This document shows positions 87-28,158 of a stretch of 32,000 nucleotides of DNA, in pieces. The DNA lies in NCBI GenBank assembly GCA_963704755.1, contig OY969938.1, positions 1,350,001-1,382,000 of the forward strand, given 5' to 3'. The notes beneath the pieces are model-generated. The model made no database searches and was not told where the DNA came from. It was given only the letters and a program-made list of their open reading frames with translations. Origin of the DNA: an uncultured Chloroflexia bacterium (lineage in GTDB: Bacteria; Chloroflexota; Anaerolineae; Anaerolineales; Anaerolineaceae). The position numbers and the translations under genes are program-made. Each line of letters starts with the position of its first letter. Position 1 is the stretch's first letter.

Positions 87-962
87 TCAGTCGGTCACCC
101 GGCGTAACTTTTTCAGCGAAGATAACTCGCTGTCATAGACCTTTTTGACGCCGTCGCCCAGGGCCTGTTCGGTCACGCGGATGTATTTGACCAGGCGTTC
201 GAAGCCGCCCGGTTCGACTGAGGCAGCCTGGTCTGAGCCCCACATGGCCCGGTCGAGGGTAATATGGCGTTCTACCAGGCAGGCGCCTAACCCGACCGCC
301 ACCACACTGGGGATCAGGCCCACTTCGTGGCCTGAATAGCCGATCGGGCAGTCGTATTCGCCCTTGAGCGTCTGTACCATGCGCAGGTTCAGGTCTTCCG
401 GCGGGCAGGGATAGGCGCTGGTGGTGTGGCAAATCACCAGCCGGCCAGTGTCCAGGTATTGGATCGCCTGCTTGATCTGGTCCTGGGTGGACATGCCGGT
501 GGAACAAATGACCGTCCGGCCGGTGCTGGTGAGCTTTTTCAGCAGGTCGTGATCGGTCAAGGCCGCCGAGGGCACCTTATAGGCTACCGGGTCGAAAGCC
601 TCCATGAAATCCACCGAGGGTTCATCCCAGACCGAAGCGAACCAGGTGACGCCGATCTTTTTGGCGTAAGCATCGATCTCGCGGTACTGCTTCTCATCAA
701 ATTCCACTTTATAGCGGTAATCCAGATAGGTGATGTATCCCCAGGGGGTTTCACGCATCACGTTGCGCTGGTCAACCGGCGTACACAGCTCCGGCGTGCG
801 TTTCTGGAATTTGACCGCATCGATACCGGTTTGTTTGGCCACGTCCATCAACCTTTTGGCAATTTCCACATCGCCGTTGTGGTTGATTCCGATCTCCGCC
901 ACAATGTAGGTCGGTTGACCTTCGCCGATCAACCGGTCCCCAATTTTTACTGTCTTCGCCAT
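87..962 (-). CDS. neuB: NeuB-family nonulosonic-acid (sialic-acid-type) synthase, short form without the C-terminal SAF/antifreeze-like domain
   Basis: 291 aa. The N-terminus IGEGQPTYIVAEIGINHNGDVEIAKRLMDVAKQTGIDAVKFQKR and the later YSGHE and ERHITLDR motifs are typical of the NeuB/PseI/LegI TIM barrel. The protein ends about 55 aa earlier than the paralog at 15140..16216. GGAG RBS 6 nt upstream of the ATG. Confidence 0.85.
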   Translation of the reverse strand: MAKTVKIGDRLIGEGQPTYIVAEIGINHNGDVEIAKRLMDVAKQTGIDAVKFQKRTPELCTPVDQRNVMRETPWGYITYLDYRYKVEFDEKQYREIDAYAKKIGVTWFASVWDEPSVDFMEAFDPVAYKVPSAALTDHDLLKKLTSTGRTVICSTGMSTQDQIKQAIQYLDTGRLVICHTTSAYPCPPEDLNLRMVQTLKGEYDCPIGYSGHEVGLIPSVVAVGLGACLVERHITLDRAMWGSDQAASVEPGGFERLVKYIRVTEQALGDGVKKVYDSELSSLKKLRRVTD

Positions 963-1131: not shown

Positions 1132-2361
1132 CTATCCAGCCTGGCGCTCTACCAGCAAGTCGCACAGTTCGCGCACCGCACCGTGGCCGCCCGGCCGCGA
1201 AAGGACCACGTCGGCCGCCCGGCGAGCTTCCGGCTGGGCATCCGCTACCACTACCCCACACCCGACCAGCGGGAAGCAGGGCACATCGTTGATATCGTTC
1301 CCCAGGTAAATCGCTTCCTGCGGATCGATTTGTTGTTCCCTTAAGTAATTCTTTAACACTCCGGTCTTGTCGGCCACACCCTGGATATAGGGCAAGCCGA
1401 TTTTCTCACAGCGGGCCTGGACGACTTTGTTCGTCTCGGCCGAGATCACCACCACTTTGACGCCGGTATGCATCAGCCTGGCCAGCCCGAGGCTATCGGA
1501 GCGATATACAGCCACGTATTCGTGCGCCTGGTCATCCACCCAGGCGCGATTATCGGTCATGACCCCGTCGAAATCGAAGACCACCAGCTTGACCTGCTCT
1601 GGCAGCGGGCGGCGCGCTTGCCCGGGCGTGACCATTTCCAGACCCGATTCGCGCACCAACCGCTCGGCATTGATCCAATCACCCGGGTTGTCGATATCCA
1701 CCGTGTAGCGCGGGTCCACCATCACCGGAAAAATTACCCTGCCGCTCATCGAACCCTGCTCCAGGATGGTGGTGGAGCGGATGGCATCGATATGGCCGGT
1801 CTGCCAGTAAACCGGTGGCAGGACCTGGCGCGGGGCGTTGTAAGGCTCGGCAATGCCGGCTACGTCGATCAGGTTCTTCATGTAACCGGTCTGGGGATCC
1901 ACTCGCCACATTTTGTGCGGGTTTTGCCCGGATGGCACGATCCCGCGGACCGAATCGACCTCCGGGTGATCGATCAGGGTTTGCACGGCCTGATCGACCA
2001 GGCCTACCGGCCGGACCGGGGAAGTCGGGCGCAACTGCACCACGATATCAGGCCCGTAGGCCTCGTTAGAGGTCAACCAGGCCAGGGCATGCTGAAAGAC
2101 CGGCAAATCCAGCGTGTTGTCTTGTGCCAGCGCCGGCGGGCGCAAAAAAGGCACATCCGCCCCAAAGTTCCGGCCAACCTCCGCTATCTCGGGGTCGTCG
2201 GTCGAAAGGATTACCCGTGTGACCAACCTGGACTGCAAGCCGGCTGCAATGCTATACGCAATCAACGGATAACCGGAGAAATCGCGGATGTTCTTGTGCG
2301 GGATACCTTTTGACCCACCACGGGCCGGGATGATGGCCAGGACTTCGAGGCGTTTTACCAT
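1132..2361 (-). CDS. neuA: fusion protein: N-terminal acylneuraminate (CMP-nonulosonate) cytidylyltransferase and C-terminal KdsC-type (C0) HAD sugar-phosphate phosphatase
   Basis: N-terminal LAIIPARGGSKGIPHKNI motif of CMP-NeuAc synthetases. The C-terminal half has HAD motif I (VVFDFDGVMTDN), motif II (VVISAETN) and motif IV (YLGNDINDVP), as in KdsC and KDN-9-P phosphatases. The ORF track starts at a TTG at 2370. I prefer the ATG at 2361, which has a GGAGG 9 nt upstream. It overlaps the end of the SDR gene. Confidence 0.85.
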   Translation of the reverse strand: MVKRLEVLAIIPARGGSKGIPHKNIRDFSGYPLIAYSIAAGLQSRLVTRVILSTDDPEIAEVGRNFGADVPFLRPPALAQDNTLDLPVFQHALAWLTSNEAYGPDIVVQLRPTSPVRPVGLVDQAVQTLIDHPEVDSVRGIVPSGQNPHKMWRVDPQTGYMKNLIDVAGIAEPYNAPRQVLPPVYWQTGHIDAIRSTTILEQGSMSGRVIFPVMVDPRYTVDIDNPGDWINAERLVRESGLEMVTPGQARRPLPEQVKLVVFDFDGVMTDNRAWVDDQAHEYVAVYRSDSLGLARLMHTGVKVVVISAETNKVVQARCEKIGLPYIQGVADKTGVLKNYLREQQIDPQEAIYLGNDINDVPCFPLVGCGVVVADAQPEARRAADVVLSRPGGHGAVRELCDLLVERQAG

Positions 2362-3179
2362 GCCGTCCAACCTCCATCCACGACCAGGTTTGCACCGGTC
2401 ATGTAGCTGGATGCATCTGAGGAAAGGAACAGGATCGCCCCGTTCATCTCGTCCTGATGGGCCATACGGCCCATCACCGCCCGGTAGGAATAATTCTGAA
2501 CGAAGGTCTCATTGTGGTTGACGAAGACCCCACCGGGCGTCAGCGCATTGGCGCGGATATTCCGCCCGGCATAATACGTAGCCAGGTAGTGGGTCAAGCC
2601 CAATACCCCGGCCTTGGTCACCGAATAAAATACCGGCTTGAACTGCTGGGGCTGGCCAGGGCGCTCGTAGATCCGCTGGTCCGGGCCGACCAACCCGTAG
2701 GTAGAGCAAATGTTGATGATCACCCCGTGATTCTGGTCGATCATAGGCCGGACGGCTGCCTGGGCACACAAAAACATGCCGGTCAGGTTGACATCCAGGG
2801 CTTGCCGCCAGGCGTCCAGGGGATAAGTTTCGAATGCGTTGTTCTGTTGGCCGCTCTGATGTTCCTCGTCGAACTTGGGGTCCATCGCTGCGCTGCAAAT
2901 CAGCACGTCCAGCCGGCCGTACTGGTTGATCGCCGCGGCGACCATGTCTTCCACCGAAACCGGATCGGTCACATCCACGCCGGTGCCAACGGCCGAATAG
3001 CCATCCTTTTGCAGGTTTTCAGCCACGGTCACGGCCGCGCTGCGGTTGAGATCGGCCACTACCACCCCCGCCCCGGCCTCAGCCAGCGTGCGGCAAAATT
3101 GCTTACCTAACAATCCGGCCCCACCGGTAACAGCGACGGCCTGGCCTTCCATTGAAAATTTATCAAAGATATGAGTCAT
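2355..3179 (-). CDS. SDR-family (short-chain dehydrogenase/reductase) oxidoreductase
   Basis: 274 aa. Has the TGGAGLLG cofactor motif, a YSVTKAG catalytic Y-x3-K and a C-terminal YMTGANLVVDGGWTAW typical of classical SDRs. Confidence 0.85.
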   Translation of the reverse strand: MTHIFDKFSMEGQAVAVTGGAGLLGKQFCRTLAEAGAGVVVADLNRSAAVTVAENLQKDGYSAVGTGVDVTDPVSVEDMVAAAINQYGRLDVLICSAAMDPKFDEEHQSGQQNNAFETYPLDAWRQALDVNLTGMFLCAQAAVRPMIDQNHGVIINICSTYGLVGPDQRIYERPGQPQQFKPVFYSVTKAGVLGLTHYLATYYAGRNIRANALTPGGVFVNHNETFVQNYSYRAVMGRMAHQDEMNGAILFLSSDASSYMTGANLVVDGGWTAW

Positions 3180-3200
3180 ACTTCCTCGGATCGATCCATT

Positions 3201-3971
3201 TTAGGGTAAAGAATAGCGGTTCTTCATCTCTTCCCACTGGCTAGGGGAACAAGACTGGAAATGCATGTCCATGTTCGGGCAGGTTTGAATGGAATAATAG
3301 GCCCCACACGCATCTGTACAACTGGCGACGATGCAAGGATTGCCATCCGGGGCGATCCGGCATTCGGTCTCACAAGACACGTTTTGCCCGCGCTGCGGGC
3401 AGGAGTTGTAGGTGTTGTAAGCCGGGACCGCCGTAGCGAACAACAGGCTTGGAATTTCAACTGTCGATTGATAAATTACTTCACCCGTATCAAAATCCCA
3501 AATCTTCAGGCTGATCGACTGGTCCAACGCCGGTTTGCCAATCCCCTGGCAGAACAATTTATCCGGGTATTGGGCGTCAAACGTACACGAGTACGAAACA
3601 CCCCCTAACTCGAGTTTATAGTTTTTATTTACCCCGGGCAAATCTACCGTGGTCATGACGCCATAAACATTGGTGACCAGGCCGGTAATCTTTAAATTAG
3701 CGAAATCTGGGCCTTAAATCGCGGTAGCGCTAGGGATGGGCGTATCACTAACCGCAGGCACCTGAGTCGGAGTCGGTACAGGTGTATCGGAAGGCAAAAT
3801 TGTCGCCGATGGCGACTGGCTGGGCGACTGGGTCGGCACAGCCGTAGCCGGTGCAGATGTATCCGTCGCGGCCGGTGTTGCGGTCGCCGATGTACAGGCA
3901 GAAACAATCAACACGATCAGGCAAAGAACAGGTCCTATCCATAATTTCGATTTCTGGCTGGATGGTTTCAT
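3201..3971 (-). pseudogene. paralog of the 4077..4847 Cys-rich lipoprotein, interrupted by an in-frame TAA at 3716-3714
   Basis: ORFs 3714..3971 (lipoprotein signal peptide plus Pro/Thr linker) and 3201..3656 (Cys-rich domain) are in the same frame. Translating across the stop gives ...SATAI*GPDFANLKITGLVTNVYGVMTTVDL..., which aligns with ...ATPSIAFDQAKIIGVTQQL... of the intact paralog. Confidence 0.75.
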
Positions 3972-4076
3972 AATTTACCCACTTAGAAAGTTTACTCCGC
4001 GGAAATACAGGAAATATTGTAACTGATCTGGCCCCGGTGGGTACGCTTCACTCATCCCGTGACCCAACCTGCCCGA

Positions 4077-4847
4077 TCAGGGGATATTGTATTTGGCCTT
4101 CATTTGGGCGATGACTGCATCGCTGCAATAGGTGAAGGGCTGGTGCAGGTCGGCCGGGCAGGAATCGATGGAGAAATAATACCCGCAGGCGTCGTAGCAG
4201 GATGCCACCAGGCAGGCCGAGCCGTCCGGCGCAATGCGGCACTCGTATTCGCAGTACTCATTTTTGCCGCGGTCCGGGCACCAGTTGCCGGTATCCCCTG
4301 CCGGGATGTCGGTTGGAATATAGGCCGATGGGATCGACACCTCGGTCGAATAAAGCACTGCGCCGCTGTTCACGTCGGTAAAATCCAGGCTCAACGACTG
4401 GTCGCCCTTGGGTTTGACCAACCCGTTGCAGAACAACCGGTCGGGCACACTGGCTACCACCGAGCAATAATAGTTCACTTTATTGAGCACCACGTTATAG
4501 GCCTGTTGAATGCCCGGAAAAGCGATGACGAGCTGGACGTTGACGCTGCCGGTGGACACCCCGTTCAACTGTTGGGTCACGCCGATGATCTTGGCTTGAT
4601 CGAAAGCGATGGATGGCGTGGCAGTGGCCGGGATGGCTGTGGGGGTGGGTGTTTCGGAAGGAATTTCCGTAGCGGTCACTGTGGCGGATGGCGCCGGAGT
4701 GAAGGTATCTGTCGGTTGGACAGGCGTCGTTGGGACGGCTTCAGTGGCGGTTGGTTGGGGTGTGCTCGCCTGGCAGCCGGCAATGACCAAAGCCAGCAGT
4801 CCAACTAAAACAAGAAGAAGAACATGGGTAAAGAGTGGTTTTTTCAT
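4077..4847 (-). CDS. lipoprotein with a Pro/Thr-rich linker and a C-terminal 10-cysteine domain of unknown function
   Basis: 256 aa. Signal peptide with lipobox (LALVIAGC), then about 55 aa of T/P/A-rich linker. The Cys pattern is C-x13-C ... CPDRG-x4-C-x3-CRIAPDG-x2-C-x4-C-x2-C-x9-CP...C. I recognise no family. Starts 3 nt after the stop of the upstream gene. Confidence 0.8.
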   Translation of the reverse strand: MKKPLFTHVLLLVLVGLLALVIAGCQASTPQPTATEAVPTTPVQPTDTFTPAPSATVTATEIPSETPTPTAIPATATPSIAFDQAKIIGVTQQLNGVSTGSVNVQLVIAFPGIQQAYNVVLNKVNYYCSVVASVPDRLFCNGLVKPKGDQSLSLDFTDVNSGAVLYSTEVSIPSAYIPTDIPAGDTGNWCPDRGKNEYCEYECRIAPDGSACLVASCYDACGYYFSIDSCPADLHQPFTYCSDAVIAQMKAKYNIP

Positions 4848-4850: not shown

Positions 4851-5837
4851 TTATAGGGAAATGGGTGTGTTTATTCGACTGGATTCCAGGATGGCCAGGG
4901 CAATCGCAAGGGCCTGTTTTCCATCCTGTAAGGTACATACCGGCTTTTCGTTCCCTTCCACAACACGCAAGAAATGGCGGGTTTGTTCCAGGAACAAATC
5001 GTTTCGCTCGAAGCCATCCGGCAGAGAAAAGAGTGTGGGAGAATCGCCCTGCTCCCGCGAGAGGGTTAAATTCCCGTTGGAATTATCCCACCGTATGGTC
5101 CCCTGGGTACCTACAATTTCCAGGCTGTGTTCTGCCGGTCTTTGCAGGTAGTCCAGGTGGACGGCAGCCACCAGGCCTTGATCGAATTTCAACAGGGCAT
5201 CGGCGCTTAAATCGACCTCGAGCTCTAACTCGGGGGAGGGATGGGTCGCGCCAAACACTTCGTGTGCCCGGCCAAAAAGCCAGCCCAGGTAATCCAATGG
5301 ATGGCAAAGGGTGCGGACCACCCCGCCGCCCAGGTCGGCCCGGGCCGCGTAAGACTGGCGATAATCTTCCCAGGGATGCCAGCCCGGCAGATACTCGCCC
5401 CAATGGGCACGCGCATGCACCGGCCGGCCGATGGTGCCCTCAGACAATAACCGGGCCGCGATGCGCAGGGTGGGATGGTAGCGGAACTGATAACCCACCA
5501 GGAGTTGGCCGCCCCCACTGCGCACAGCCGCCTCCAGGGCGTCGATCCTGGCCAGGCTGTCGGAAACCGGCTTTTCGATGAAAATATGACAGCCTGCCCG
5601 TGCAGCCGGGATGGCCACGTCCAGGTGCAGGGCGGTCGGGGTGGCGATCAGCACCGCGTCCGGGCGATGGGCCAGGGCAGCCGCCAGGTCAGTCTCGACC
5701 GGGATGTCGCGGATCTCATCCGTAGGCAGCGTCGACTTCTGGCTGCGCAGCAAGACAATGTCATGCTGGCCCAATTCGCTCAGGTTGCGCAGGTGCCGCC
5801 GGCCAATCGATCCAAAACCCACAATCAAAAATTTCAT
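4851..5837 (-). CDS. Gfo/Idh/MocA-family NAD(P)-dependent oxidoreductase
   Basis: 328 aa. N-terminal Rossmann MKFLIVGFGSIGRRH and the EKP motif (HIFIEKPV) typical of the family. Confidence 0.85.
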   Translation of the reverse strand: MKFLIVGFGSIGRRHLRNLSELGQHDIVLLRSQKSTLPTDEIRDIPVETDLAAALAHRPDAVLIATPTALHLDVAIPAARAGCHIFIEKPVSDSLARIDALEAAVRSGGGQLLVGYQFRYHPTLRIAARLLSEGTIGRPVHARAHWGEYLPGWHPWEDYRQSYAARADLGGGVVRTLCHPLDYLGWLFGRAHEVFGATHPSPELELEVDLSADALLKFDQGLVAAVHLDYLQRPAEHSLEIVGTQGTIRWDNSNGNLTLSREQGDSPTLFSLPDGFERNDLFLEQTRHFLRVVEGNEKPVCTLQDGKQALAIALAILESSRINTPISL

Positions 5838-5896: not shown

Positions 5897-7330
5897 TTAT
5901 TTAACCAGGGAAGCCAGGTATTCGCCGGTATGTTTGCCGGCCGAGCCGTCCGTGTAGGTCACCTCGTCGGCGACAAAGCGCAGGCGTTGTTCGGCGTCCA
6001 GCCCAGGATTGCGCAGGTAGGCATCGATGGCCTCGCGCGCCTGATCGGCATTGAAGGCCACTCTGCCCGCGCCGGCATTGCGGAAGCGCTGGTGGGTCGG
6101 CCATTCGGCGATTTCGGACAGCGCCAGTGAAAACTTGCCGGGGGTATTCCAGCCGCCGGGCGTGTCGATGCAGACGCTCACGATCGGCCGGTTGTGAATG
6201 GCCGTCTCGACCACCATGGTCGAATAGACGGTTAAGAATACATCCGCGTGGGCCATCATCGAGGACTTCTCCGGCATATCTTCGCCTGAATAATACCCCA
6301 ATTCTCCCCCCAATGGCACCGGTTCCACCAGGTGAATATGAGGGTGTTCGCTGGCCAGTTGGCGCACCCGGTTGGCCTCCTGCTCGTACAGCGACCCTGG
6401 AATGAAATGGTTGGGGTGCAGGCGGATCAAAAGCTGGCAGGGTTCGCTCAAGCTGTCCGACTTGACCAGCTCCGCCAGAGCCTCGATATTGGGCAGGTTG
6501 GGCGAAAAAGTGACAAAACTGGAGGCATACGCCAGCAGTTTGCGGTTGGGGTCCAGCCCGTGCAGCTTGAAATACTCCGCGCGGCTCATCTGCCACTGCT
6601 TGCGGAAGTAACCATCGTAGGTAGGGATGCCGCCCACGTTGACCTGTTCCGGCGCCCAATCGCCGCCGTAAACCAACTCGTCCCGTTGGGTCTGCGACCA
6701 ACAGGTGGCGTAGTCCATATGCGCACCTGGCAGGCGGTAGCTGCTGGGGTTGTCCCAGCCGATGATGGCCGTGGCCGTTTTGGTCCCACGGGCCGCTGCT
6801 TCGCGCAGCAGGTAGCGGTCCAGGCGCCAGCCCGGGGTGCTGGCCACCACCAGGTCCGGTTGGTATTTCTCGAACAGGTCGGTATAAATCGCGGGAGTAA
6901 AGCGCTGTTGATAATTTACCAGGGCCTTGCGCGCGGCTTGTGAACGGCGCAGCAGGGCTATCGCCAGGCGGACCGCCGGCAGGGTCAGCTTGCCGCCGCG
7001 GGAGGTCTCGTAGGCCATCTGGCGCATATGTGAAATCTGCGGGTTGAGGTTGACCTTGTTCGAGCCGCCCATCCAGCGCAAAAAGTGGACCCAATACTGG
7101 GTATGGTAGGCGGTGTGCTCGAAGTAATCGCGCGCCTTGTCGAGCCGCAGCCCCTCTACGATCAGGCCGGGTTGGCCAAAACGTTGGTTGATTTGCTCGA
7201 TCAGGGCATCATCGCTGAGCAGGACCACTTCGATGCCGGCCGAAAGCAAGGTCTGCAAAACATCGCTCTGCAAGAAATAAACGATGGCCAGTCCATGATC
7301 GGCGCTGATGAATATTCGTCGTGAAGGCAT
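5897..7330 (-). CDS. GT-B-like two-Rossmann protein with an HP motif (TagF/KpsS/sialyltransferase-like); function unassigned
   Basis: 477 aa. LLIRLHPNH lies in the C-terminal half, followed by ADVFLTVYSTMVVETAIHNRPIV (a nucleotide-sugar-binding style). The N-terminal half reads like a Rossmann fold. Assigned from motifs only. Confidence 0.5.
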   Translation of the reverse strand: MPSRRIFISADHGLAIVYFLQSDVLQTLLSAGIEVVLLSDDALIEQINQRFGQPGLIVEGLRLDKARDYFEHTAYHTQYWVHFLRWMGGSNKVNLNPQISHMRQMAYETSRGGKLTLPAVRLAIALLRRSQAARKALVNYQQRFTPAIYTDLFEKYQPDLVVASTPGWRLDRYLLREAAARGTKTATAIIGWDNPSSYRLPGAHMDYATCWSQTQRDELVYGGDWAPEQVNVGGIPTYDGYFRKQWQMSRAEYFKLHGLDPNRKLLAYASSFVTFSPNLPNIEALAELVKSDSLSEPCQLLIRLHPNHFIPGSLYEQEANRVRQLASEHPHIHLVEPVPLGGELGYYSGEDMPEKSSMMAHADVFLTVYSTMVVETAIHNRPIVSVCIDTPGGWNTPGKFSLALSEIAEWPTHQRFRNAGAGRVAFNADQAREAIDAYLRNPGLDAEQRLRFVADEVTYTDGSAGKHTGEYLASLVK

Positions 7331-7418: not shown

Positions 7419-8384
7419 TTACATCTGCCGGTCATAATACCAACGAAATATTTTGTCGTATAAACCCAGCAGTGCCCTCTTGACCGGTGGGAAATCCAGA
7501 ATCGGGTGTTTGCCGGCATCGGCCTGGCGGGCGGGGGCTTGCCCGGCCTGGGCCGCCTGCACCCCGCGCAGGGTATTGGACATGTTCATGGCGTAGGGCT
7601 GGACGGGCATCAGCCGCAGCAGGCCGGCCCCGTTCATGCGCTGGTCGAGCTGCTTGACCTGGCCCATCGGGCGGTCCATGGCGAAGGGCAGAAATTGGGC
7701 CAGCACCTTCTTGTAAGCCAGAAACTGCCAGTGCGAACCGCCCGCCAGGGCCTGCAGGCCGCGGTAGGTCAGGCGCACATCCTGGCTGGTCTCATAATGC
7801 TGGCGAATTTCCTCGTCGGATTGGCCCAGGCTGAGGTCGAACTCCTCGAAGGTCTCCCAGGGGATGAACTGGCCCTGCTCGACCGCCACGTCGGGAGTCG
7901 TTTGGCCCCAGGCGAGGGTCTTGCTATAAAAATCCGGGTTGGTGCGGAAGGGCCGGGAGGTGACCATGCCCACGTTGGGGTAGGTTTCCAGCAAGACCAG
8001 GCTCTCTTTCAGCCAGCCGGGGTAGAACAGCACGTCGCTATCGGCGTAGGCGATGATCTCGCCCGGCGCGCCGCTCAGAATCATGTTCCAGGCGCCACCC
8101 TTACCCAGGTTCTTCTCCGAAAGCAGCAGGTATTGAATGCGCCCCTCGCGCTGTTCATTGAGCAGCCAGTCCTGCACTTCCGGGCAGCTGCCGTTGTCGA
8201 AGACCATCAGGTCGAACGGCTCGCCGGCCTCGGTGCGGGCGGATTGCAGGCAGGCCTTGAGCACGTCCAGCGTCTCGCTGTAGAACCCGCTCAAAAAGGG
8301 AATGTAATTCAAAACCGCCGCGGTGATCCGCTCGGGTCGGGCAACGTTTTTCACATACTTGGCCGGGTTTTGGCCTACGCGCAT
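7419..8384 (-). CDS. family-2 (GT-A fold) glycosyltransferase
   Basis: 321 aa. Has MVFDNGS and YADSDVLF (DxD-type) motifs. Strong GAGGAG RBS 6 nt upstream of the ATG. Confidence 0.8.
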   Translation of the reverse strand: MRVGQNPAKYVKNVARPERITAAVLNYIPFLSGFYSETLDVLKACLQSARTEAGEPFDLMVFDNGSCPEVQDWLLNEQREGRIQYLLLSEKNLGKGGAWNMILSGAPGEIIAYADSDVLFYPGWLKESLVLLETYPNVGMVTSRPFRTNPDFYSKTLAWGQTTPDVAVEQGQFIPWETFEEFDLSLGQSDEEIRQHYETSQDVRLTYRGLQALAGGSHWQFLAYKKVLAQFLPFAMDRPMGQVKQLDQRMNGAGLLRLMPVQPYAMNMSNTLRGVQAAQAGQAPARQADAGKHPILDFPPVKRALLGLYDKIFRWYYDRQM

Positions 8385-8416
8385 ACGAAACTCCTCAAGT
8401 TCATAATCGGAAAGAT

Positions 8417-8589
8417 ATCACCGCAGAGACGCAGAGGACGCTGAGAAGAAATTATATTAATTCTTCGAGGAATGGCGCCTTGTTCGGCACGGTTCCCTGG
8501 CCAAGGGCACTCTTCAGCGTTTGCCAAGAAGGTTTCACCGCAGAGACGCGGAGGGCGCTGAGAAGAATTTATATTAATTCTTCGAGGAA
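8417..8589 (+). repeat. two direct copies of a 55-bp repeat (8418..8472 and 8535..8589), each starting with a triple 8-mer (CGCAGAGA CGCAGAGG ACGCTGAG) and ending in an AT-rich palindrome (gaagaaattatattaattcttc)
   Basis: My hand alignment gives 52/55 identical positions. 8417..8437 is a perfect 21-bp inverted match to 9468..9488. Confidence 0.85.
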
Positions 8590-8715
8590 AGTCTTTTTCG
8601 GCAAAGTCTCTCGATCGAGGCCGATTTCCAATGCCTGAATGGAGAATTCTCAATGTAAATAGCAAGGGAACACGCAAAAGGAGCAGTGAACGAGGCGAAG
8701 ATGGCAAAACCTTTG

Positions 8716-9108
8716 TCATGACGCTTGCTCCTCGTAATTCAGGACAATTCGGCGCAACCCACGTTTCAGGACGGGCACATTGAAATTGATTAATAAAGCT
8801 GTTTTCCAACCGCCCAACTTTAAATAGGTGATCACCTGAGCCTCATGGATTGGCAACACAGTTTCAACACATTTCAATTCGACTACAACCAGATCTTCTA
8901 CCAAAAAATCCAACCGATAACCACAATTGAGGAGCCTGTCCTTGTAGTGAACAGGAAGCTCCATCTGTCTTCTAAAACTTAATCCTCTCAGGCCAAATTC
9001 ACAATCCAGGCATTCTTCATAGGCCGATTCCAATAAACCGGGGCCCAATACTTTATGAACCTCGATCGCAGCGCCTATAATTTTTTCAGTAACCTGGTTA
9101 ATTTCCAT
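8716..9108 (-). CDS. GxxExxY-family protein (PD-(D/E)XK nuclease-like fold)
   Basis: 130 aa. [13 protein letters not shown] contains the name-giving G-x2-E-x2-[14 protein letters not shown] is the D...E-x-K-like core. Visibly lower GC than the flanking biosynthetic genes. Confidence 0.85.
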
Positions 9109-9197
9109 AATAGTGGCTCGTTGTATTCTCTGAACTTCTCTAACGGTCCTTCTCTAAATCTTTATTTACAATCTTTCTCTCTTCCTCTCTCCTAAAA

Positions 9198-9490
9198 CTC
9201 TTCTCTGCGCCCTCAGCGTCTCTGCGGTATTTTTCATTCCTAAATCCGCTTTTCTTCTCCGTGACCTCTGTGGCTTTTTATTCCAAAACCCATTCTTCTT
9301 CTCCGTGAACTCCGTGCCTCCGTGGTTTTCTATTCCAAAATCCTCTCTTCTTCTTTGTGCACTCTGTGGTTTTCTTTCTTTCTCTCTCTTTTCTTTTTTC
9401 TTAAATCCGTTTTTCTTCTCCGTGCACTCCGTGCCTCCGTGGTTATTTATTCCTAAATCCTTTGCGCCCTCTGCGTCTCTGCGGTGATTA
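9198..9490 (-). repeat. array of about six degenerate tandem units
   Basis: Read on the minus strand, each unit is GGATTT(A/T)GGAATAAA...CCAC(G/A)GAG(G)CACGGAG..CACGGAGAAGAA, or the CCGCAGAGACGC(A/T)GAGGGCGC variant. Units are at about 9198-9248, 9252-9291, 9293-9343, 9345-9400, 9413-9460 and 9461-9490. The outer units (9198..9229 and 9461..9490) are inverted copies of the 8418/8535 repeat. The last unit contains the TAA stop of the 9488..10399 gene. Confidence 0.8.
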
Positions 9491-10399
9491 TTTCTTCTTC
9501 AGCGCTTTGCGCAGTTCGGGCAGGCCTTTCCTGGGATGGAATACGGCATAAAAAAGCCACGCCAATCGAGAAGAGTGCAGGCGCACCAGCGGGAAGATCT
9601 CCACCTCGCGCCAGAAACGCCGCCAGGTCAGCGGCAGCCGGCGGATTTGGCCGCCCGCCAGACGGCAGGACACATCCGCCAGTTTGAAGATGGTCAATTT
9701 GCCGCCGCCCAGGCGCACGTTTTCGTCCGTCTCGGGCAGGCGATAATGGGGTTGGCCGTTCGGCAGGTGCGCATAATCGTGGTTCTGGTGGACCACCTGC
9801 ATGTCGGCGGTAGCGTCCACCACGGCCCAGCCGTTCCGGCGGGCAAAATAAATCATCCAGTTGTCCCAGCCGGCCCGCCCAACCGCCATGGGTGGCAGCG
9901 TAGCAAAGCAGGCGCGCGGGAAGATGAAGTAATCGCTGCCCCCGGCCGGGTGCAGCCGGCCGGCGTGAGCCAGGAAATCGCAAAGATGGGCATCCCAACC
10001 CTGCGAAAAATCGAGGTCCTCCTGCACGTCCAGGTCCCAGCGCTGGCCAACAACCAGGAATTTATCGAACCGCTCTGCCACACAGGCAGCCCCGCTGACA
10101 AAATCCGGCCGTAAAAGAATATCCGCGTTGACGTAGGCCAGCAGATCCCCGCTGCCTTGCCGGCGGGAGATATCGAAGATCGAGCTGATCAGCGGCGTGC
10201 CGTAACTGTTGCGGTCCACCTCTGCCACGTGTAAAACACCCAGGTCCCGCGCGGCTTGCTCGATACCGTCTTCGTTGCCGATCAGGATCACTTCAACCTG
10301 TGGTCCCAGGGCCTTCCACGAGCGGATGGCATTGCGCTGGATACGGGCAATATGCGCGTTGGTAAAGGGTTTCGGTGCAGTGAAAAGCGTCAGCAGCAT
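9488..10399 (-). CDS. putative GT-A-like glycosyltransferase (uncharacterised family)
   Basis: 303 aa. Coding quality is clear. The N-terminus FTAPKPFTNAHIARIQRNAIRSW and the acidic motif YVNADILL resemble a widespread unnamed glycosyltransferase-like family. The function is inferred from context. Confidence 0.5.
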   Translation of the reverse strand: MLLTLFTAPKPFTNAHIARIQRNAIRSWKALGPQVEVILIGNEDGIEQAARDLGVLHVAEVDRNSYGTPLISSIFDISRRQGSGDLLAYVNADILLRPDFVSGAACVAERFDKFLVVGQRWDLDVQEDLDFSQGWDAHLCDFLAHAGRLHPAGGSDYFIFPRACFATLPPMAVGRAGWDNWMIYFARRNGWAVVDATADMQVVHQNHDYAHLPNGQPHYRLPETDENVRLGGGKLTIFKLADVSCRLAGGQIRRLPLTWRRFWREVEIFPLVRLHSSRLAWLFYAVFHPRKGLPELRKALKKK

Positions 10400-10408: not shown

Positions 10409-12461
10409 TTAATTCCCGCAGGAAAGGTTGATTTTCAGCCAACCGTAGCGGTCGGCTTGGGCCGAATCGAGCGAACTCTCATCCAGCGAATCCTTCCAGA
10501 TCGAGCACAGGTACGGCTCTGCCCCGCGAACAGTCTTGCGGACTGTATCGGTCAAATCGTAGGCCTGGTCCCAATTCTGGGTATGGATATCCGCCTCGAT
10601 GAACGGGATCAGCTCGGTGCTGACATTGGTGCTGACCTGCGCCTTTTGGGCCTGGCTCCACAACTGGTTGACCGTATCCCACTGGCCAAACTGACGTGCC
10701 AGGTCCGCCTTCTGGTAATAGTAACACCAGCTATTCTGGTCCTGAACCGGGAAGAAAATTTTCTGGGCATAACCCGGATCGGGTGTATCTTTGATCAGCG
10801 ACATATCGGCCGCATCCAACGCAGTGCGCGTATCCTCATCGATCAGCGGGTTGAGCTTATCCTCCGGCGAAAGCACCCACAAGCAGGCGCCGGGTACCTC
10901 GCCATAGGAAATTACCAGGCTGCGGTTGCTGACACCCTGGAAAGAGTCTTGCCAGCGCACCTGAGTCACATCGACTCCGTTGGCCAGATCGTACATGTTG
11001 TTGGGAAAATACTTGCTCAAGGTCAGGAACCAGTAATCGAACTGGTTGGATTGTTTGGCCTGGTCGGATTGGGGGTAGAGCACATTTAAAGCAAATGAGG
11101 TGGGGTAAACCCCCATCTTGGAGAACAGTTCATTATCCGAAAGGATGAGCGTATCCGGCTCCAACTGGGGCACGCGCCAGCCCAATTGGGAATAGAAACG
11201 GGATTGGTTGATCCACGACCAGCGATAATCGCTCAAGTTGCGGGATTGGACCCCCACTGCCAGACCGATCAATACACTGATCACGATCAGCCGGGCTTTC
11301 TCGCTGCGCACCAGCCAATAGATCAGGGCCACAATCGCCAGGGCAGCCCCCGGCATGGATGCGATGCCAAAGCGGTCATTCCACAAGCCGCTGGTATCGC
11401 TGATGTGGCGGTCGACCAACCAGCCCGGCAGGAAACCCAGGACCATCCAGGCAACGCCAACCCAAAACGCCTGTATATACCAGGTGGAGGAAGAATTCTC
11501 TTCCCGTTCTACCGGCTGGGTAATGAACCGGCTAAAAAAGAACACCCCAATTGCCACCAGGATGAATAAGCCCAGGGCCAGAATCAGCGCCGGGGAAGTG
11601 AAATCGATCATCGAGGGATCGAAAGCACCCGACCAGGTATAAAAGACCATGTGAACCAGGTCGCGCAGGCTGGACTGGACCAGGCTTAAAATTCTTAACC
11701 GGCGATTGGGCCAGCAATTGGAATAACTTGACGTAATTCCGGTCCCGGCTGATGGGGAGTTGGATAAAGAACTCGCGCCAGACCACAAACGCCACCCAAA
11801 CGGCCAGGTAGGGCGCCCACATTTTGATCACATACAGGCGGCGCTTTTTGGGATCGGAGGAGACATTTTTGGAATACAACCACAGCAGGATGGGCCGGAA
11901 CAGCTCCAGGCCGACAAAGAACTCCTCCAGCACAAAACCAACCCCATTCAGAATCAATCCCAGCAGAGTCAGGGGGATGGCCCAGCGCGGTTTTTGAGTG
12001 GCCAGGATCATCAGGTAGAAAGTGGCCACGATGCACAGGAACGAGAACCAATGCGCACTGAAGGTGAGGGAAATGGGCTGCTGCATAAACTGGGGATAGA
12101 CCAGGAAGAGCAGGGCCGCCAGTGTGACCAGCACCCGCTGTTTGGGCCAGATCTGGTTGAACACCAGCCAGAAGAAAATAACGGTCAACACCCGGGCAGT
12201 GAAGGTGAAGATCTGCCAGGCCAGGGCGTTATAACCCAGGGTTGCGAAAAGCGGCAAATAAAACCAGCCGGAGAGCGGACGGGTATCGACTGCGTGGAAA
12301 AGGATCGTACCGGCGTTGCCATTGGCAGTCTGGAAGAAAAGATTGGGCCAATCATCCAGGTAAAAACCGATCTGGGGCAGGTATATCCCAAAAGTGACCA
12401 GGGCAACGGCCAGAATGGCCAGGACCGGCAGGAGTTTGCCTTTTCGCAATTTATTGATCAT
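10409..12461 (-). pseudogene. large polytopic membrane protein (GT-C-like glycosyltransferase, oligosaccharyltransferase or polymerase candidate) with a +1 frameshift near 11688..11696
   Basis: ORFs 11532..12461 and 10409..11788 overlap in different frames. The sensible sequence switches from ...KLFQLLAQSPVK (frame of 12461) to ILSLVQSSLRDLVHMVFYTW... (frame of 11788) at an A4/T4 run. Joined, the protein would be about 680 aa: more than 10 hydrophobic segments, an early FYLDDWPN loop and a soluble C-terminal domain of about 280 aa. Confidence 0.7.
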
Positions 12462-13237
12462 GGTTCTCAGCTCTTAAATCTACGTCAAACATGCTTTTAT
12501 GTCGCACGTCAGCATTGATTTCCTGTAACTCGGGGTGGGCCTGCCAGGCGGTCAATACATCCTGCCAGGAAAAATTGTGGCGCTCGGCCAATAAATCGAA
12601 CAATTTGCGCACAACCTGTAAATCCTGCTCGGTATCCACCGTCCAACGCAGGTCACCGTAATCCTGCTCGGCATCCACCACCACTACCTTTAAAGCGGCC
12701 CGGTTGATCGTACAGATAGGGCATCACGTGCTCGCGTTCGTGGGGCAGTTTAGCCTCGTTCCAGGCCCGCTCCAGGGCCGTAAAGCTGCACACTTCCACA
12801 TCCAGGCCAATGGGATAGGTGCGCTTATAAGGCGGCGGGAGGCGGTTCGCGGCGAAGTCCGCGCCCTGTTCGAAGAAGGCCCGCACCGTCCGGTCGATCA
12901 CGCCCGGGTCGATCAAGGGGCAGTCGGCGGTAATCCGCACGATCACGCTCGCATCGGCCAGGCTGGCCGCCTGGTAGAAGCGGTCGAGTACATCGAACTG
13001 GCTGCCGCGGTAGCACAGGTAGCCTTCCCGGCTGCAAGTCAACTCAATCGGGTCATCGGAAGGATCATCGCTGGTCGCCACGATCACCTCATTGATCGTC
13101 TCCGCGCTGGCCGTCCGGTCCATAACGTGGCACAACATCGGCCTCCCGGCGATCGGCTTAAGCACTTTACCGGGCAAACGGCTGGAATTCATCCTCCCCT
13201 GTATAATGGCAATCGCCTGTTGGTTACTTGCGTCCAT
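12451..13237 (-). pseudogene. SpsF-type cytidylyltransferase (CTP_transf_3-like), with a +1 frameshift near 12686..12695
   Basis: N-terminal IAIIQGRMNSSRLPGKVLKPIAGRPML is the SpsF signature. Frame 1 ends ...YLYDQPGRFK then nonsense. The next frame continues VVVVDAEQDYGDLRWTVDTEQDLQVVRKLF, the conserved family C-terminus. There is an extra G in the context tttaaaGgta. Confidence 0.8.
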
Positions 13238-13428
13238 TTCAATGCTTTCGTTGTTTCAATTTCAGGTTTACGAGCAGCTTTCTCTTTCAAAAGGAAGCTC
13301 GGGTTCCGTGCAATGTTGGCGGGAACGAATAGTGTTCTAACAATGCTGCCCAAAGGCAGGTGAAGTATACTCCCGCAAATCGCGAGAGCGGTTTTGCATA
13401 TCCGGGAGAAAAGTGGGAACTGCCATAG

Positions 13429-14541
13429 CTATTCCGGCCTGCCCTGCCGGGCAAGCTGGTAGGCTCGCAGCAGCTCCTGGAAATTCTTGTTCCAATCGGC
13501 CCGCTGTTCGGCTAACCGGCGTGATTGGCTGCCCAGGCCGGCCAACTGATTTCGCTGCTCATAGGCTCGCAAGATACCCTCGGTAACGGCCTGGTCGTCC
13601 CCATCCGGGAACATCCAGCCTTGTTCGGGTGTGACCCATTCGCGGTTTCCGGGGATATCTGTAACCAGCACCGGCAGGCCGCTGGCCAATGATTCCAGCA
13701 AGGAAACCGAGGTACCATCACTGTGAGAGGCGCTGGCGTACAGATCGGCCACGCGATACCAATCGGGCAATTCGGTCTGGGTGACCCTCCCGCCAAAATA
13801 GACCTGTTCCATCACCCCGGCCTGCAGCAAGATGCTGCGCAGTTCGGCGGTCTGCGAGCCGGCTCCCAGCAGCGCCAGGCGTAGCTGGGGCACCTGTTGA
13901 GCAGCGCGCACAAAGCCGCGCACCAGCACGTCCACCCCATAAATCGGTTCCCAGGAGCGCAGCGAGAGCACCACAAAGGCATCTTCCCAGCCGAGCCGTT
14001 CACGCAGGGTTTGGTTTTTTCCAGGCTTGAAGCGCTGCAGGTCCACGCCCCATGGGAAAAGTACCACTCTTTCGGATGGAAAGCCGAACTCGGCGGCCTT
14101 TTCCTGTTCGGCCCGGCAATCACCGACCAGGACCGCCGTCCGGTCGAGGGTGTAGCGGGTCGCCCGCTGCATCCAGGGCGATTGATCGGCCTCCTTGAGC
14201 AGGTCCGAGCCCCAGGTCATGGTCACCAGCGGCTGAAAGCCGCTGCGCGCGGCCAGGTAAGCGGCCGATTGGACCGGCCCGGCATGGATCAGGTCGGGCT
14301 GGATTTCACGGATCACCCGGCGCAGTTCTGCCAGCAAGTGCGGGTAATCGCGCGGTTCGGCCGGCTGCCGTCCGCCGGCCCAGGGCACCTGGGTAATCTC
14401 CGGCGGCAAAGGCCGGTCCTCCAACTGCACGCCGCGGCGTTCCAGGCGCAAAGCGTACACCTGGTGCGCAGTCCCGGCCAGCGCGCTCAGAAAGCGGTGG
14501 TCGTGGGGAGAGTAGTCGCGGGTGAAATACAAAAGTTTCAT
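13429..14541 (-). CDS. GT4-family (GT-B) glycosyltransferase
   Basis: 370 aa. The C-terminal SHSDGTSVSLLESLASGLPVLVTDIPGNREWV is the E-x7-E region typical of GT4 enzymes. Confidence 0.85.
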   Translation of the reverse strand: MKLLYFTRDYSPHDHRFLSALAGTAHQVYALRLERRGVQLEDRPLPPEITQVPWAGGRQPAEPRDYPHLLAELRRVIREIQPDLIHAGPVQSAAYLAARSGFQPLVTMTWGSDLLKEADQSPWMQRATRYTLDRTAVLVGDCRAEQEKAAEFGFPSERVVLFPWGVDLQRFKPGKNQTLRERLGWEDAFVVLSLRSWEPIYGVDVLVRGFVRAAQQVPQLRLALLGAGSQTAELRSILLQAGVMEQVYFGGRVTQTELPDWYRVADLYASASHSDGTSVSLLESLASGLPVLVTDIPGNREWVTPEQGWMFPDGDDQAVTEGILRAYEQRNQLAGLGSQSRRLAEQRADWNKNFQELLRAYQLARQGRPE

Positions 14542-14561
14542 GATTCTTACTGCGTGATAGA

Positions 14562-14596
14562 GTGATTCGGTGATTTAGTGTCTCGGTTGTTCAGTG
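14562..14596 (-). repeat. left arm of an imperfect 35-bp inverted repeat flanking the four-helix-bundle gene
   Basis: The reverse complement, cactgaacaaccgagacactaaatcaccgaatcac, matches 15100..15134 at 26/35 positions (hand alignment). Confidence 0.55.
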
Positions 14597-14673
14597 ATTC
14601 TCAGATGGCATTTTACATAAATTGGATCGGAATTCCAATTTGGCTCTTTGTAAACATACGCTGCGCCCCATGG

Positions 14674-15045
14674 CTATTTTGTACGTTGGTATTGTGAGCT
14701 TCTCAGTGAACCGATCATTGACTTGATAAGTTCAATCTTTTTATAAAGCGTATCAAATTTATTCTGATCGATATATCCGGCATCCAAAGCGACATAAAGT
14801 AAGGATTGAACTTCAGCGCCTGAGCGGTGGGCAATTCCAAGAAATTTCGCAAATTCAATCGGCGATTTACAATCAAAACCTTCTGCGATGTTGGCCATGA
14901 TTGACACTGAAGCTCTGCGAAGCTGGTCAGAAAGTCCATAGTCTTTACCAAGCGGCGGAACGGATGCCATTCGGTAAATTTCCTGTGTCAACAACCGTGC
15001 TTCTTGCCAACCCTTGATGTCTTCGAAACTGCGAATGAGCGGCAT
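14674..15045 (-). CDS. four-helix-bundle protein (23S rRNA intervening-sequence protein / Avd-like family)
   Basis: Has FEDIKGWQEARLLTQEIY, SDQLRRASVSIMANIAEG and GIAHRSGAEVQSLLYVA, characteristic of the family. I place the start at the ATG at 15045 (MPLIRSF), which has a GGGGAAG RBS, rather than the track start at 15096. Lower GC than its neighbours. Confidence 0.85.
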   Translation of the reverse strand: MPLIRSFEDIKGWQEARLLTQEIYRMASVPPLGKDYGLSDQLRRASVSIMANIAEGFDCKSPIEFAKFLGIAHRSGAEVQSLLYVALDAGYIDQNKFDTLYKKIELIKSMIGSLRSSQYQRTK

Positions 15046-15099
15046 GCAGGTCTTCCCCTTTGAACTCATCAAACTTCTGATGGATGAGAAGAACACTTA

Positions 15100-15134
15100 C
15101 ACTGAAAAACCGAAAAACTGTATCACTGGAAAAC
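15100..15134 (+). repeat. right arm of the inverted repeat flanking the four-helix-bundle gene
   Basis: cactgaaaaaccgaaaaactgtatcactggaaaac; see 14562..14596. Confidence 0.55.
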
Positions 15135-15139
15135 GATTT

Positions 15140-16216
15140 TTAAACCAAATCCGTCCAATACATTTCCTTTCCGGCCGGGATATCATGCGCGGCGGTAGTG
15201 CCGACCACACGGGAGATATCCGGAGGGAGGATGGCGCCGCGGACGGCCGGACGCAGCACGTTCAGCATCTCACGGGTGATCACGTCGCCGGCATGGATGT
15301 CCTGCCCGGCACGCAGGCAGCGCCGCTGCAAAACGACCGTTTCCTGCTCGTTGCCGGCCACGTCCTTGTCGGCTGAACCCAGGGCCAGCTCCAACTCGCG
15401 GCTGCGGGTGACCATCTCCGCCCAGGCGATTGGGTCCAGCGCGAAAGCGTGATCCGGGCCATCCCGCAGGTTGTCGTCGGTGAAGTGCTTTTCGATCACC
15501 CGCGCGCCCAGGCTGATTGCACCCAGCACGGCCGCATGGCCGGGGGTATGGTCCGAAAGACCTAACACCGTCTCCGGGAACATCATCTGATATGTCTTCA
15601 ACACGTTCAGGTTGACATACTTGAAGTTCTCCAGGCTGCCGGTGTAATTGGTATTGCACTGCATCAGCACCAGTTGCGGATTCCTGGCCAGGATGGTATG
15701 CGCGGCCTGCTGGACCTCGCCGATTGTGGCGGCGCCGGTGGCCAGCAGCACCGGTTTACCTTTAGCCGCAATCCGGTCGATGGCCTCCAGCCAATCGATT
15801 TCACCCGAGCCAATCTTATAGACCGGCATATACTCGTCCAGGAAATCGATAGCCTCGAAGTCATATGGGGCCGAAAAATAATCGATGCCGACCTTGTCAC
15901 AGGTCTCCTTCAGTTCATTGGTCCACTCGAAGGGAATCGAAGCGGCCTGGTAAACCTCATAGACCGATTTTTTCCACTGAGCCTGGTGGGACTGCTGCCC
16001 GCCCAGCGATTTGAACCCGTAATCGGAAACAATCTTGGGAGCGCTGAAGTTCTGGAATTTGGCAGCATCCGCACCGGCCTGTTTGGCCAGCTTGATCAAA
16101 TATTTGGCCCGCTCCAGGCTACCATCATGGTTTGCGGCGATATCCGCCACAAAATACACTGGGTGGTCTTCACCGACCAACCGATTGCCGATTTTGATTT
16201 CCATCTTACCCTCCAT
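15140..16216 (-). CDS. neuB: NeuB/PseI/LegI-family nonulosonic-acid synthase, full length with a C-terminal SAF domain
   Basis: 358 aa. Has VGEDHPVYFVADIAANHDGSLERAKYLIKLAKQAGADAAKFQNF, LSDHT and EKHFT motifs. The C-terminal approx. 60 aa (RRCLRAGQDIHAGDVITREMLNVLRP...) are SAF-like. An alternative start at 16204 has a GGAGG RBS. Confidence 0.9.
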   Translation of the reverse strand: MEGKMEIKIGNRLVGEDHPVYFVADIAANHDGSLERAKYLIKLAKQAGADAAKFQNFSAPKIVSDYGFKSLGGQQSHQAQWKKSVYEVYQAASIPFEWTNELKETCDKVGIDYFSAPYDFEAIDFLDEYMPVYKIGSGEIDWLEAIDRIAAKGKPVLLATGAATIGEVQQAAHTILARNPQLVLMQCNTNYTGSLENFKYVNLNVLKTYQMMFPETVLGLSDHTPGHAAVLGAISLGARVIEKHFTDDNLRDGPDHAFALDPIAWAEMVTRSRELELALGSADKDVAGNEQETVVLQRRCLRAGQDIHAGDVITREMLNVLRPAVRGAILPPDISRVVGTTAAHDIPAGKEMYWTDLV

Positions 16217-16236
16217 GCTCTCTCTAGGGTGGTCTA

Positions 16237-18185: not shown

Positions 18186-18296
18186 TACCCCATCCTAGCG
18201 GGGAAAAATTTTTCTTCCGTAAAAGTTTACTAACCGGCCAGTCTATGAAGCCAAACCACCTGCGATGCAGGCATTCCCACTGGATAGAATCACCGA

Positions 18297-19166: not shown

Positions 19167-19180
19167 CCGCACCTCTACCT

Positions 19181-20818: not shown

Positions 20819-20819
20819 G

Positions 20820-22921: not shown

Positions 22922-22941
22922 TAATTGCTCCTACAGTTTGG

Positions 22942-24377
<1,436 letters not shown>

Positions 24378-26296: not shown

Positions 26297-26374
26297 ACCT
26301 TGCTCCTAAGAGAAAACGGATATGAAAAGGGATGCAAGGTTTGTGCCGGGAAAGGAAAGAGCAGAAAAATTGAT

Positions 26375-28086: not shown

Positions 28087-28104
28087 CTATTCCTCCACTT
28101 ACAT

Positions 28105-28136: not shown

Positions 28137-28158
28137 AGCGTATTGGTTCCAGAAAATG

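Follow-up and report, generated by a model that had tools for sequence, protein, structure and literature searches.

Acceptor proteins are frequently encoded within glycosylation loci, as with flagellins, S-layer proteins and pilins, and glycosylated flagellins are acceptors encoded in nonulosonic-acid glycosylation loci. The mycobacterial 19-kDa LpqH is an O-mannosylated actinobacterial lipoprotein modified by a PMT-family GT-C enzyme, and Wzi of E. coli, an outer-membrane beta-barrel of a diderm cell, is a capsule-locus lectin that retains polysaccharide. The Anaerolineae are abundant filamentous anaerobes of digesters, sediments and sludge. To our knowledge their envelopes are poorly characterised, and literature searches on Anaerolinea together with nonulosonic acids, or on Chloroflexi lipoproteins together with O-glycosylation, found nothing relevant. 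In Tannerella forsythia, surface proteins carry an O-glycan that is terminated by pseudaminic or legionaminic acid (Pse/Leg) (PMC5420450). We analysed two adjacent genes, here called A and B, in a stretch of 32,000 nucleotides (the window) of contig OY969938.1, which originates from an uncultured bacterium of the Anaerolineaceae.

A and B belong to an uncharacterised surface-lipoprotein family and are tandem paralogs of ancient origin; we consider their architecture, paralogy and genomic placement secure with high confidence. The function that we favour, at close to even confidence, is that they would be the acceptor or carrier proteins of the surrounding operon on the cell surface. They would act as dedicated surface partners of that operon; the glycan that the locus produces would be O-linked to the Thr/Ser-rich stalk on the far side of the membrane, and the conserved folded head would serve recognition or display. 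The parts of the two genes are as follows, with residue numbers referring to A.

4077..4847, minus strand: paralog A, intact lipoprotein gene, 256 amino acids, public record P0001 with a 100% match (open reading frame (ORF) list and sequence)
4773..4847, minus strand: signal peptide of A with lipobox, MKKPLFTHVLLLVLVGLLALVIAG followed by Cys25, the predicted lipidation site (sequence; Cys25 invariant in 29 homologs)
4608..4772, minus strand: Pro/Thr/Ala/Ser stalk of A, residues 26-80 (composition; predicted local distance difference test score (pLDDT) 54-68, no secondary structure)
4290..4607, minus strand: predicted beta-sandwich of A, seven strands, residues 81-186, with the Cys pair C128/C140 (AlphaFold2)
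4080..4289, minus strand: 8-Cys domain of A, residues 187-256, ending in Y-N-I-P (AlphaFold2 domain model, searches, cysteine parity)
3201..3971, minus strand: paralog B, disrupted, in one frame (ORF list, translation)
3717..3971, minus strand: 5' part of paralog B, 85 codons, signal peptide with lipobox (...LIVLIVSA/C) and Pro/Thr linker (sequence)
3714..3716, minus strand: in-frame TAA at codon 86 of paralog B (translation and sequence; orthologs intact here)
3201..3713, minus strand: 3' part of paralog B, beta-sandwich and 8-Cys domain, 170 codons and stop (sequence, translation)

A preliminary description of the window had reported tandem paralogs at 3201-3971 and 4077-4847 on the minus strand, and BLASTP bore this out: with B read past its stop, the two proteins were 40% identical over 250 amino acids (E 1e-55), which is far above chance. 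All ten cysteines that follow the lipobox (10/10) were in register, as described before, and they were invariant in a reference alignment of 29 full-length homologs. The same alignment showed invariance of the lipobox Cys, of the C-terminal Y-x-I-P and of R193, G194, E200, E202, R204, G209, D219, G222, Y224, P231 and K250. The ten cysteines had been assigned to a single 10-cysteine domain; their conservation stood, but they belong to two units, with C128 and C140 in the beta-sandwich and eight in the C-terminal domain. Similarly, the layout of lipobox, linker, beta-rich region and C-terminal domain was found in both genes as claimed, but in B it is interrupted by the TAA codon, which the preliminary description had overlooked. 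The lipobox signal peptide and the Pro/Thr/Ser/Ala linker (55 amino acids in A, 51-66 in the family) were recovered as well. So was the placement between a Gfo/Idh/MocA oxidoreductase gene (4851-5837) and a short-chain dehydrogenase/reductase (SDR) gene (2355-3179), in an operon with NeuB and CMP-transferase-HAD genes. All named members of the family come from the Anaerolineae (Chloroflexota), without exception.

The lipobox reads MKK...LVIAG/C in A and ...LIVSA/C in B, in each case preceded by an h-region. Both proteins show the sequence features of bacterial lipoproteins of the Sec/signal peptidase II route, namely a basic N-terminus, a hydrophobic helix and a lipobox of the form [LVI][ASTVI][GAS]-C, and no twin-arginine signal was found in the sequence of either. 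Proteins of the A/B family are thus predicted to be exported by Sec and lipid-anchored at the lipobox Cys, and A and B would be located on the external face of the membrane of a monoderm cell. The stalk of A consists of 22% Pro and 29% Thr, and Pro, Thr, Ser and Ala together make up 75% of it; in family stalks of 51-66 residues the corresponding ranges were 14-25%, 19-39% and 58-84%. At about 55 residues, the Pro/Thr stalk is predicted to be disordered and to space the head from the membrane. A full AlphaFold2 model of A, built as a single chain on the reference alignment (mean pLDDT 80), placed the signal helix at residues 6-22 and the strands of the sandwich at 86-171 (pLDDT about 90-97), with residues 23-80 between them as an unstructured stalk. 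The C-terminal unit was modelled as antiparallel strands at 198-205, 211-219 and 222-228, followed by a helix at 243-252. In a Foldseek search with the full model, only weak Ig-like matches to the beta-sandwich appeared (beta-2-microglobulin, TIG; E 0.05-0.1, template modelling (TM) score <=0.44), none of them at E 1e-3.

The C-terminal domain had not been recognised in the preliminary description, and its profile search and structure prediction had been proposed there. Modelled alone from 56 diverse sequences, the cysteine domain of ~45-70 amino acids gave a confident model (pLDDT 93.1) and no match to a well-known family. Its eight cysteines are spaced C-x8-C-x3-C-x8-C-x4-C-x3-C-x8-C-x10-C. 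Neither A nor B belonged to a family in Pfam or NCBIfam, and scanning the 29 homologs at E up to 1 returned low-complexity stalk noise and no domain match. A sequence search of the PDB gave no match, and a PDB profile search of the cysteine domain gave 0 matches at E up to 10. With the model of the domain as query, the best Foldseek match in the PDB had an E of 0.6 (TM <=0.37) and the best in BFVD an E of 0.066. No similarity to the known disulfide-rich lectin and knottin folds (hevein/CBM18, EGF, knottin) was seen by PDB profile search or Foldseek. The cysteine domain is new relative to the libraries searched; since Foldseek is weak on very small domains, a new fold is still a claim for experiment.

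Mean pairwise identity was 0.34 in the stalk, 0.41 in the beta-sandwich, 0.72 in the cysteine core and 0.55 in the C-terminal extension. Such constraint on the head, and not on the stalk, would be accounted for by the main rival explanation, in which the two proteins would be lectin-like anchors whose four-disulfide head binds the acidic nonulosonic-acid glycan and tethers it through stalk and lipid. The head is the most conserved part and a small three-stranded disulfide-rich module, R193, E200, E202, R204, D219 and Y224 are invariant, and F225 is nearly so, in the region of the C-G-x-Y-[FY]-S motif. Arginine commonly binds the carboxylate of sialic acid, and hevein is one of the small disulfide-rich lectins that employ exposed aromatics. 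In addition, the C-terminal helix and the Y-x-I-P end are restricted to the members linked to the operon. However, the same core occurs in 6-Cys relatives distant from glycan genes, and neither Pfam, PDB profiles nor Foldseek gave any sequence or structural similarity to a known lectin or carbohydrate-binding module. As judged from the sequences, we consider a lectin-like anchor unlikely, although well worth keeping in view.

The state of the cysteines was addressed with the relatives of A and B. A profile search of 1.84 billion representative proteins yielded 595 relatives at E<=1e-3, 57 of them at E<=1e-30. The C-terminal region had 6 or 8 cysteines in 113/116 proteins that carry the cysteine domain. 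Cysteines were lost in pairs: C203 together with C241 in at least 37 proteins, C199 with C217 in 3 and C190 with C221 in 1. The hairpin register, as we read it from the AlphaFold2 prediction, places C199 opposite C217 and C212 opposite C230; the partner of C212 is C230, or an alternative C-terminal Cys in some relatives. We infer the disulfides C190-C221, C199-C217, C203-C241 and C212-C230. The even counts, the paired loss, the hairpin register and the Sec-type (non-Tat) signal argue for four disulfides and not for a metal cluster; binding of a metal or an iron-sulfur centre by the cysteines was considered and rejected on the Sec signal, the even counts and the paired loss. The extracytoplasmic, disulfide-rich character proposed earlier agrees with the Sec-type lipoprotein signals and with this cysteine pattern.

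We classified 184 sequences by architecture, and 99 contained both domains, 66 only the sandwich and 17 only the cysteine domain, with neither detected in 2. The two domains are distributed as modules that do not depend on each other. The distant 6-Cys relatives do not have C203, C241 and the C-terminal helix and are not glycan-linked. Four tandem cysteine-only lipoproteins lay among genes for DNA polymerase III, RRF, UppS and CdsA (loci L019/L020), and single 6-Cys copies were found directly 3' of S-adenosylhomocysteine hydrolase (L016 744-1517, L021 8001-8705, L022 4724-5428). This hydrolase neighbourhood recurred on two distinct contig sets (L016; L021/L022). The 6-Cys relatives away from glycan genes keep the core R-G...C-E-T-E-x-R...D-A-C-G-Y-Y-Y-S.

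The subfamily with eight cysteines and a Y-x-I-P end was distributed differently. We surveyed 20 non-redundant loci, the window included, and found 1-3 copies directly after the Gfo gene in 20/20. The SDR gene was downstream of the 8-Cys copies at every locus whose contig extends that far. Among these loci are those of the cultured Anaerolinea thermolimosa IMO-1 and Bellilinea caldifistulae GOMI-1 and of a metagenome-assembled genome (MAG) labelled A. thermophila, besides others from Anaerolinea, Bellilinea and Chloroflexota MAGs. The C-terminal helix and the Y-x-I-P end were confined to operon-linked members. A check for linkage of homologs to glycan genes had been suggested, with absence of linkage counting against a glycan role, and the outcome was divided: the 8-Cys subfamily of the window was linked in 20/20 loci, whereas the 6-Cys relatives of the wider family occur in housekeeping contexts and most related sugar operons are without the genes.

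Clustering of the copies showed that the SDR-adjacent copy, which mostly ends in ...YQIP, forms a single clade over 14/14 loci compared. The Gfo-adjacent copies form lineage clades, and in three-copy loci the copy in the middle (...YGIP) clusters with the first. Because orthology is position-specific, the split between A and B is older than these genera and both types have mostly been retained. Two anciently diverged paralogs held in fixed order could also be accessory subunits of a transfer machinery, with heads that hetero-oligomerise and dock on a membrane glycosyltransferase, ligase or exporter, where they present or measure the glycan. The invariant C-terminal Y-x-I-P suggests a docking peptide, and lipoproteins and tandem GT-C proteins alternate in one slot. 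Single-copy loci (L031, L034/L035) and the presence of only one intact gene, A, in the window speak against such subunits, and we regard this arrangement as improbable.

Metagenome contigs were scanned with an alignment of a 477-amino-acid protein encoded next to Gfo. This gave 80 loci at 60-77% identity, and 38 of them had both Gfo and SDR. Lipoproteins occupied the slot in 5/38 loci, with two copies in 2 and one copy in 3. Gfo abutted SDR in about 17/38 loci, and about 15/38 had 2-5 kb of other cargo. In nine loci (L032, L039, L051, L052, L059, L060, L067, L074 and L075) the slot contained 2-3 tandem polytopic membrane proteins of 530-630 amino acids, some slot polytopic proteins being above the Pfam PMT_2 threshold, and at L032 a different Pro/Thr-linker lipoprotein (16113-16943) came after the polytopic proteins. 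PMT/PMT_2-family genes were also present at L004 and L005. Three further slots (L069, L093, L097) held a bifunctional ATP sulfurylase/adenosine 5'-phosphosulfate (APS) kinase, alongside a hexapeptide acyltransferase in L069 and L097; this cargo points to a sugar variant that is sulfated or acylated. The Gfo-SDR junction is a variable cassette slot, its identifiable cargo being mostly for the modification or transfer of glycan, and the lipoprotein genes are accessory and follow a birth-and-death pattern.

This variability raises the question whether A and B are generic envelope lipoproteins (structural, protective or an inhibitor-like knot) that hitch-hike in a recombination-prone slot and share nothing with the operon except its promoter. 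Other lineages have unrelated cargo there (GT-C proteins, ATP sulfurylase/APS kinase, acyltransferase) or none, the relatives in housekeeping contexts occur as tandem arrays or singles, and copies have been gained, duplicated and lost, with B broken in the window. On the other hand, the remaining cargo is glycan-related, for transfer or modification, which argues that the slot is not random, and the 8-Cys subfamily was never outside the slot in 20 loci from several genera and shows position-specific orthology. We therefore hold passive hitch-hiking to be distinctly unlikely.

The operon around A and B contains the following genes.

4851..5837, minus strand: Gfo/Idh/MocA oxidoreductase, upstream edge of the slot (Pfam PF01408, PF22725, PF02894; conserved neighbour)
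2355..3179, minus strand: SDR oxidoreductase, downstream edge of the slot (Pfam adh_short_C2; 65-85% identical in related loci)
1132-2370, minus strand: CMP-sugar synthetase fused to a KdsC/Kdn-9-P-phosphatase-like HAD domain (Pfam, NCBIfam)
87-962, minus strand: NeuB-family synthase (Pfam, NCBIfam)
5897-7330, minus strand: 477-amino-acid protein, weakly BFO_1060-like (NCBIfam NF046086, E 6e-8, 32 bits against a cutoff of 200)
7419-8384, minus strand: GT2 glycosyltransferase (Pfam GT2)

NeuB and the CMP-synthetase/HAD fusion are the nonulosonic/ulosonic-acid core of this operon, and the window is one large surface-glycan locus. BFO_1060 is a strain ortholog of Tannerella forsythia transferases for Pse/Leg derivatives that are active in protein O-glycosylation (PMC5420450). 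The ortholog of the 477-amino-acid protein at L001 gave a weak match to Glyphos_transf. A starts 3 nucleotides after the Gfo stop codon, and SDR starts 21 nucleotides after the stop of B. No promoter-like site was found on the coding (minus) strand, and terminator-like sites numbered 2, against 3.8 expected from shuffles. The gene spacing, the lack of a coding-strand promoter and the terminators, which are not above shuffles, weakly suggest that A and B are on one transcript with the operon and co-expressed with the glycan pathway.

A role as glycosylation substrate, or as glycan-binding or anchoring factor, had been proposed in the preliminary description and is plausible. The acceptor reading draws on several of these observations together: PMT-type GT-C proteins and Pro/Thr-linker lipoproteins recur in the slot, the operon has a Tannerella-like transferase candidate, and acceptor genes are often found in glycosylation loci. 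The candidate nonulosonic-acid transferase is only distantly Tannerella-like; the locus also has a Wzm/Wzt exporter. An exported Ser/Thr-rich segment, as in O-glycosylation acceptors, is present with a linker of 19-39% Thr, but it is also present in relatives outside glycan loci.

Several results weigh against acceptor function. As many as 33/38 related operons were without lipoproteins, including L023 and L024, where Gfo abuts SDR and the 477-amino-acid protein is 75-76% identical to that of the window, so the sugar pathway is independent of the lipoproteins. Since relatives in housekeeping contexts have the stalk, it is probably a generic spacer and not specific evidence of glycosylation. 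The cysteine core is the most constrained part of the protein (72% identity against 34% in the stalk), which is more than a mere carrier would need. In the window, the one candidate for a polytopic transferase-like protein (10409-12461) carries a frameshift and had no family match. Finally, lipoprotein copies decay in nature, as indicated by a relic of ~250 nucleotides of the SDR-adjacent copy at L034 5820-6069 and L035 13177-13426, in which the signal peptide MKKLWVMFVLIVIFVQAC and the final ...KKYQIP are left and the middle is deleted.

In the window itself copy B is disrupted. Its TAA cuts the folded domains (3204-3713) off from the part with signal peptide and linker (3717-3971), and because of this in-frame stop at codon 86 B has no uninterrupted frame in the window. 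The first ATG past the stop, at 3656, would give a product of 151 amino acids with no signal peptide, and public record P0008 annotates B as a 151-amino-acid protein from 3656. The stop aligns with a Pro/Ser position immediately N-terminal to the conserved (G)PDF motif of orthologs, whose reading frame is uninterrupted at this position. One base change in a Ser TCA codon would suffice for the TAA, and the orthologs have Pro or Ser nearby. B is a member of the SDR-adjacent orthologous clade present in 14/14 loci compared; its C-terminus is YSLP, as compared with Y-x-I-P in the 29 homologs. For the closest relative (P0002), contigs L103 and L104 cover 54 codons of B and break off short of the stop position. 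The TAA may be a genuine nonsense mutation or stem from an error of the assembly; unless the latter holds, B is inactivated ahead of its folded domains and only A can be made as a lipoprotein. The idea of recoding was dropped: the codon is TAA and not TGA, there was no sign of recoding, and readthrough, though conceivable, has nothing in its favour. We also considered a recurrent truncation of A, suggested by a 137-amino-acid call (P0007, L003), and rejected it; translation can begin at a TTG, from which the frame stays open and encodes a normal signal peptide, and the short call is a gene-calling artefact.

Other broken genes were noted. At window positions 10409-12461 (minus strand) lies a homolog of a 683-amino-acid polytopic protein of L001, with a frameshift at ~11690 that splits it into ORFs 11532-12461 and 10409-11788; it is the second disrupted gene of the locus, by assembly error or real decay. 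The L001 protein (1722-3773) has ~10 transmembrane helices and a soluble C-terminal domain. Neither Pfam nor the PDB supported its identification as a GT-C enzyme, and BLASTP showed no similarity between it and the PMT_2 protein that occupies the equivalent position in L005. No recognisable PMT gene was found in the window. On a long MAG contig, the CMP-transferase/HAD fusion gene at L004 11580-12801 (same contig as L013) is in two pieces. Breaks of this kind may come from errors in long-read assembly or from real decay, and the split fusion gene is a further hint at errors.

The rest of the window contains further glycan genes. A second, separate nonulosonic-acid-type gene set lies at 12653-23997 and includes the following.

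15140-16216: NeuB with SAF domain
17169-18185: PseB/CapD-like dehydratase
16237-17244: RmlD-like reductase
12653-13237: cytidylyltransferase
19181-20818: KpsC/S-like 545-amino-acid protein
20820-22921: Wzt/Wzm ABC exporter

This set also has GT4 gene(s) and methyltransferase(s). Nearer to A and B, the GT2 gene and a gene for a 303-amino-acid protein are separated by a PD-(D/E)XK_3 family gene (8716-9108), an insertion that related loci do not have. The insert (window 8350-9500) is flanked by copies of a ~30-60-nucleotide repeat (ACCGCAGAGACGCAGAGGACGCTGAGAAGA...) in inverted orientation, at 8412-8472 and 8529-8589 versus 9195-9228 and 9412-9496. Towards the end of the window, at 26000-32000, the G+C content falls from about 0.55 to 0.34-0.45. 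This part encodes a secreted protein of 464 amino acids (28159-29553) that is rich in Ser/Thr, repeats ...QNLG... motifs and matched no family, along with a protein with eight transmembrane helices (29610-30542), a methyltransferase and GT1-family genes. This end of the glycan locus may have been acquired horizontally, and it has another candidate surface glycoprotein.

The 8-Cys head could be a new fold that specifically recognises, or is specifically decorated with, a nonulosonic-acid glycan, and the dedicated A/B pair could build a lipoprotein-anchored, sialic-acid-like coat in the Anaerolineaceae. We put this forward tentatively and on the doubtful side. If true, a monoderm would have a means of fixing an acidic glycan to its surface that has not been described before, and there would be a new lectin or acceptor domain family. 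As acceptors or anchors, A and B would show how Anaerolineae display sialic-acid-like sugars and would add a small disulfide-rich module for binding or display; if they are neither, a glycan operon with a variable cassette site is clearly exemplified by the Gfo-SDR slot. The family offers a domain that is modelled with confidence, has no known structural relative and is fixed in a nonulosonic-acid operon of cultivable strains, so that its role can be approached by direct experiment in cultures that have the locus.

In comparison with known systems, the domain of A and B resembles hevein/CBM18, knottins and EGF-like domains in having ~45 residues, 3-4 disulfides, a short antiparallel three-stranded sheet and conserved exposed aromatics. 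However, its cysteine spacing differs from the one typical of these families, and Pfam, PDB profiles and Foldseek gave no match to them. Wzi also is a non-enzymatic surface protein from a locus for glycan biosynthesis and export, which for A and B has a Wzm/Wzt ABC exporter, but A and B are lipid-anchored, stalked and from a monoderm, and they have no similarity to Wzi. With the loci of the Tannerella and flagellin type, the A/B locus has in common a surface protein together with a NeuB-type synthase, a CMP-activating enzyme and glycosyltransferases. Between the 477-amino-acid neighbour and the Tannerella transferases the similarity is distant, with a BFO_1060 family score far under the cutoff (32 vs 200 bits). 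The acceptors in those systems are S-layer proteins or flagellins, whereas the candidates A and B are small lipoproteins. From lipoproteins of the LpqH type, A and B differ in their folded domains, which are unrelated, in their genes, which lie inside a nonulosonic-acid operon while LpqH-type genes are scattered, and in their glycosylation, which is conjectural. What they share with the LpqH type is a Sec/signal peptidase II lipoprotein signal, a Thr/Pro-rich stretch directly after the lipid anchor, a monoderm envelope and the occurrence of PMT/PMT_2-family enzymes, in this case in loci related to the A/B locus.

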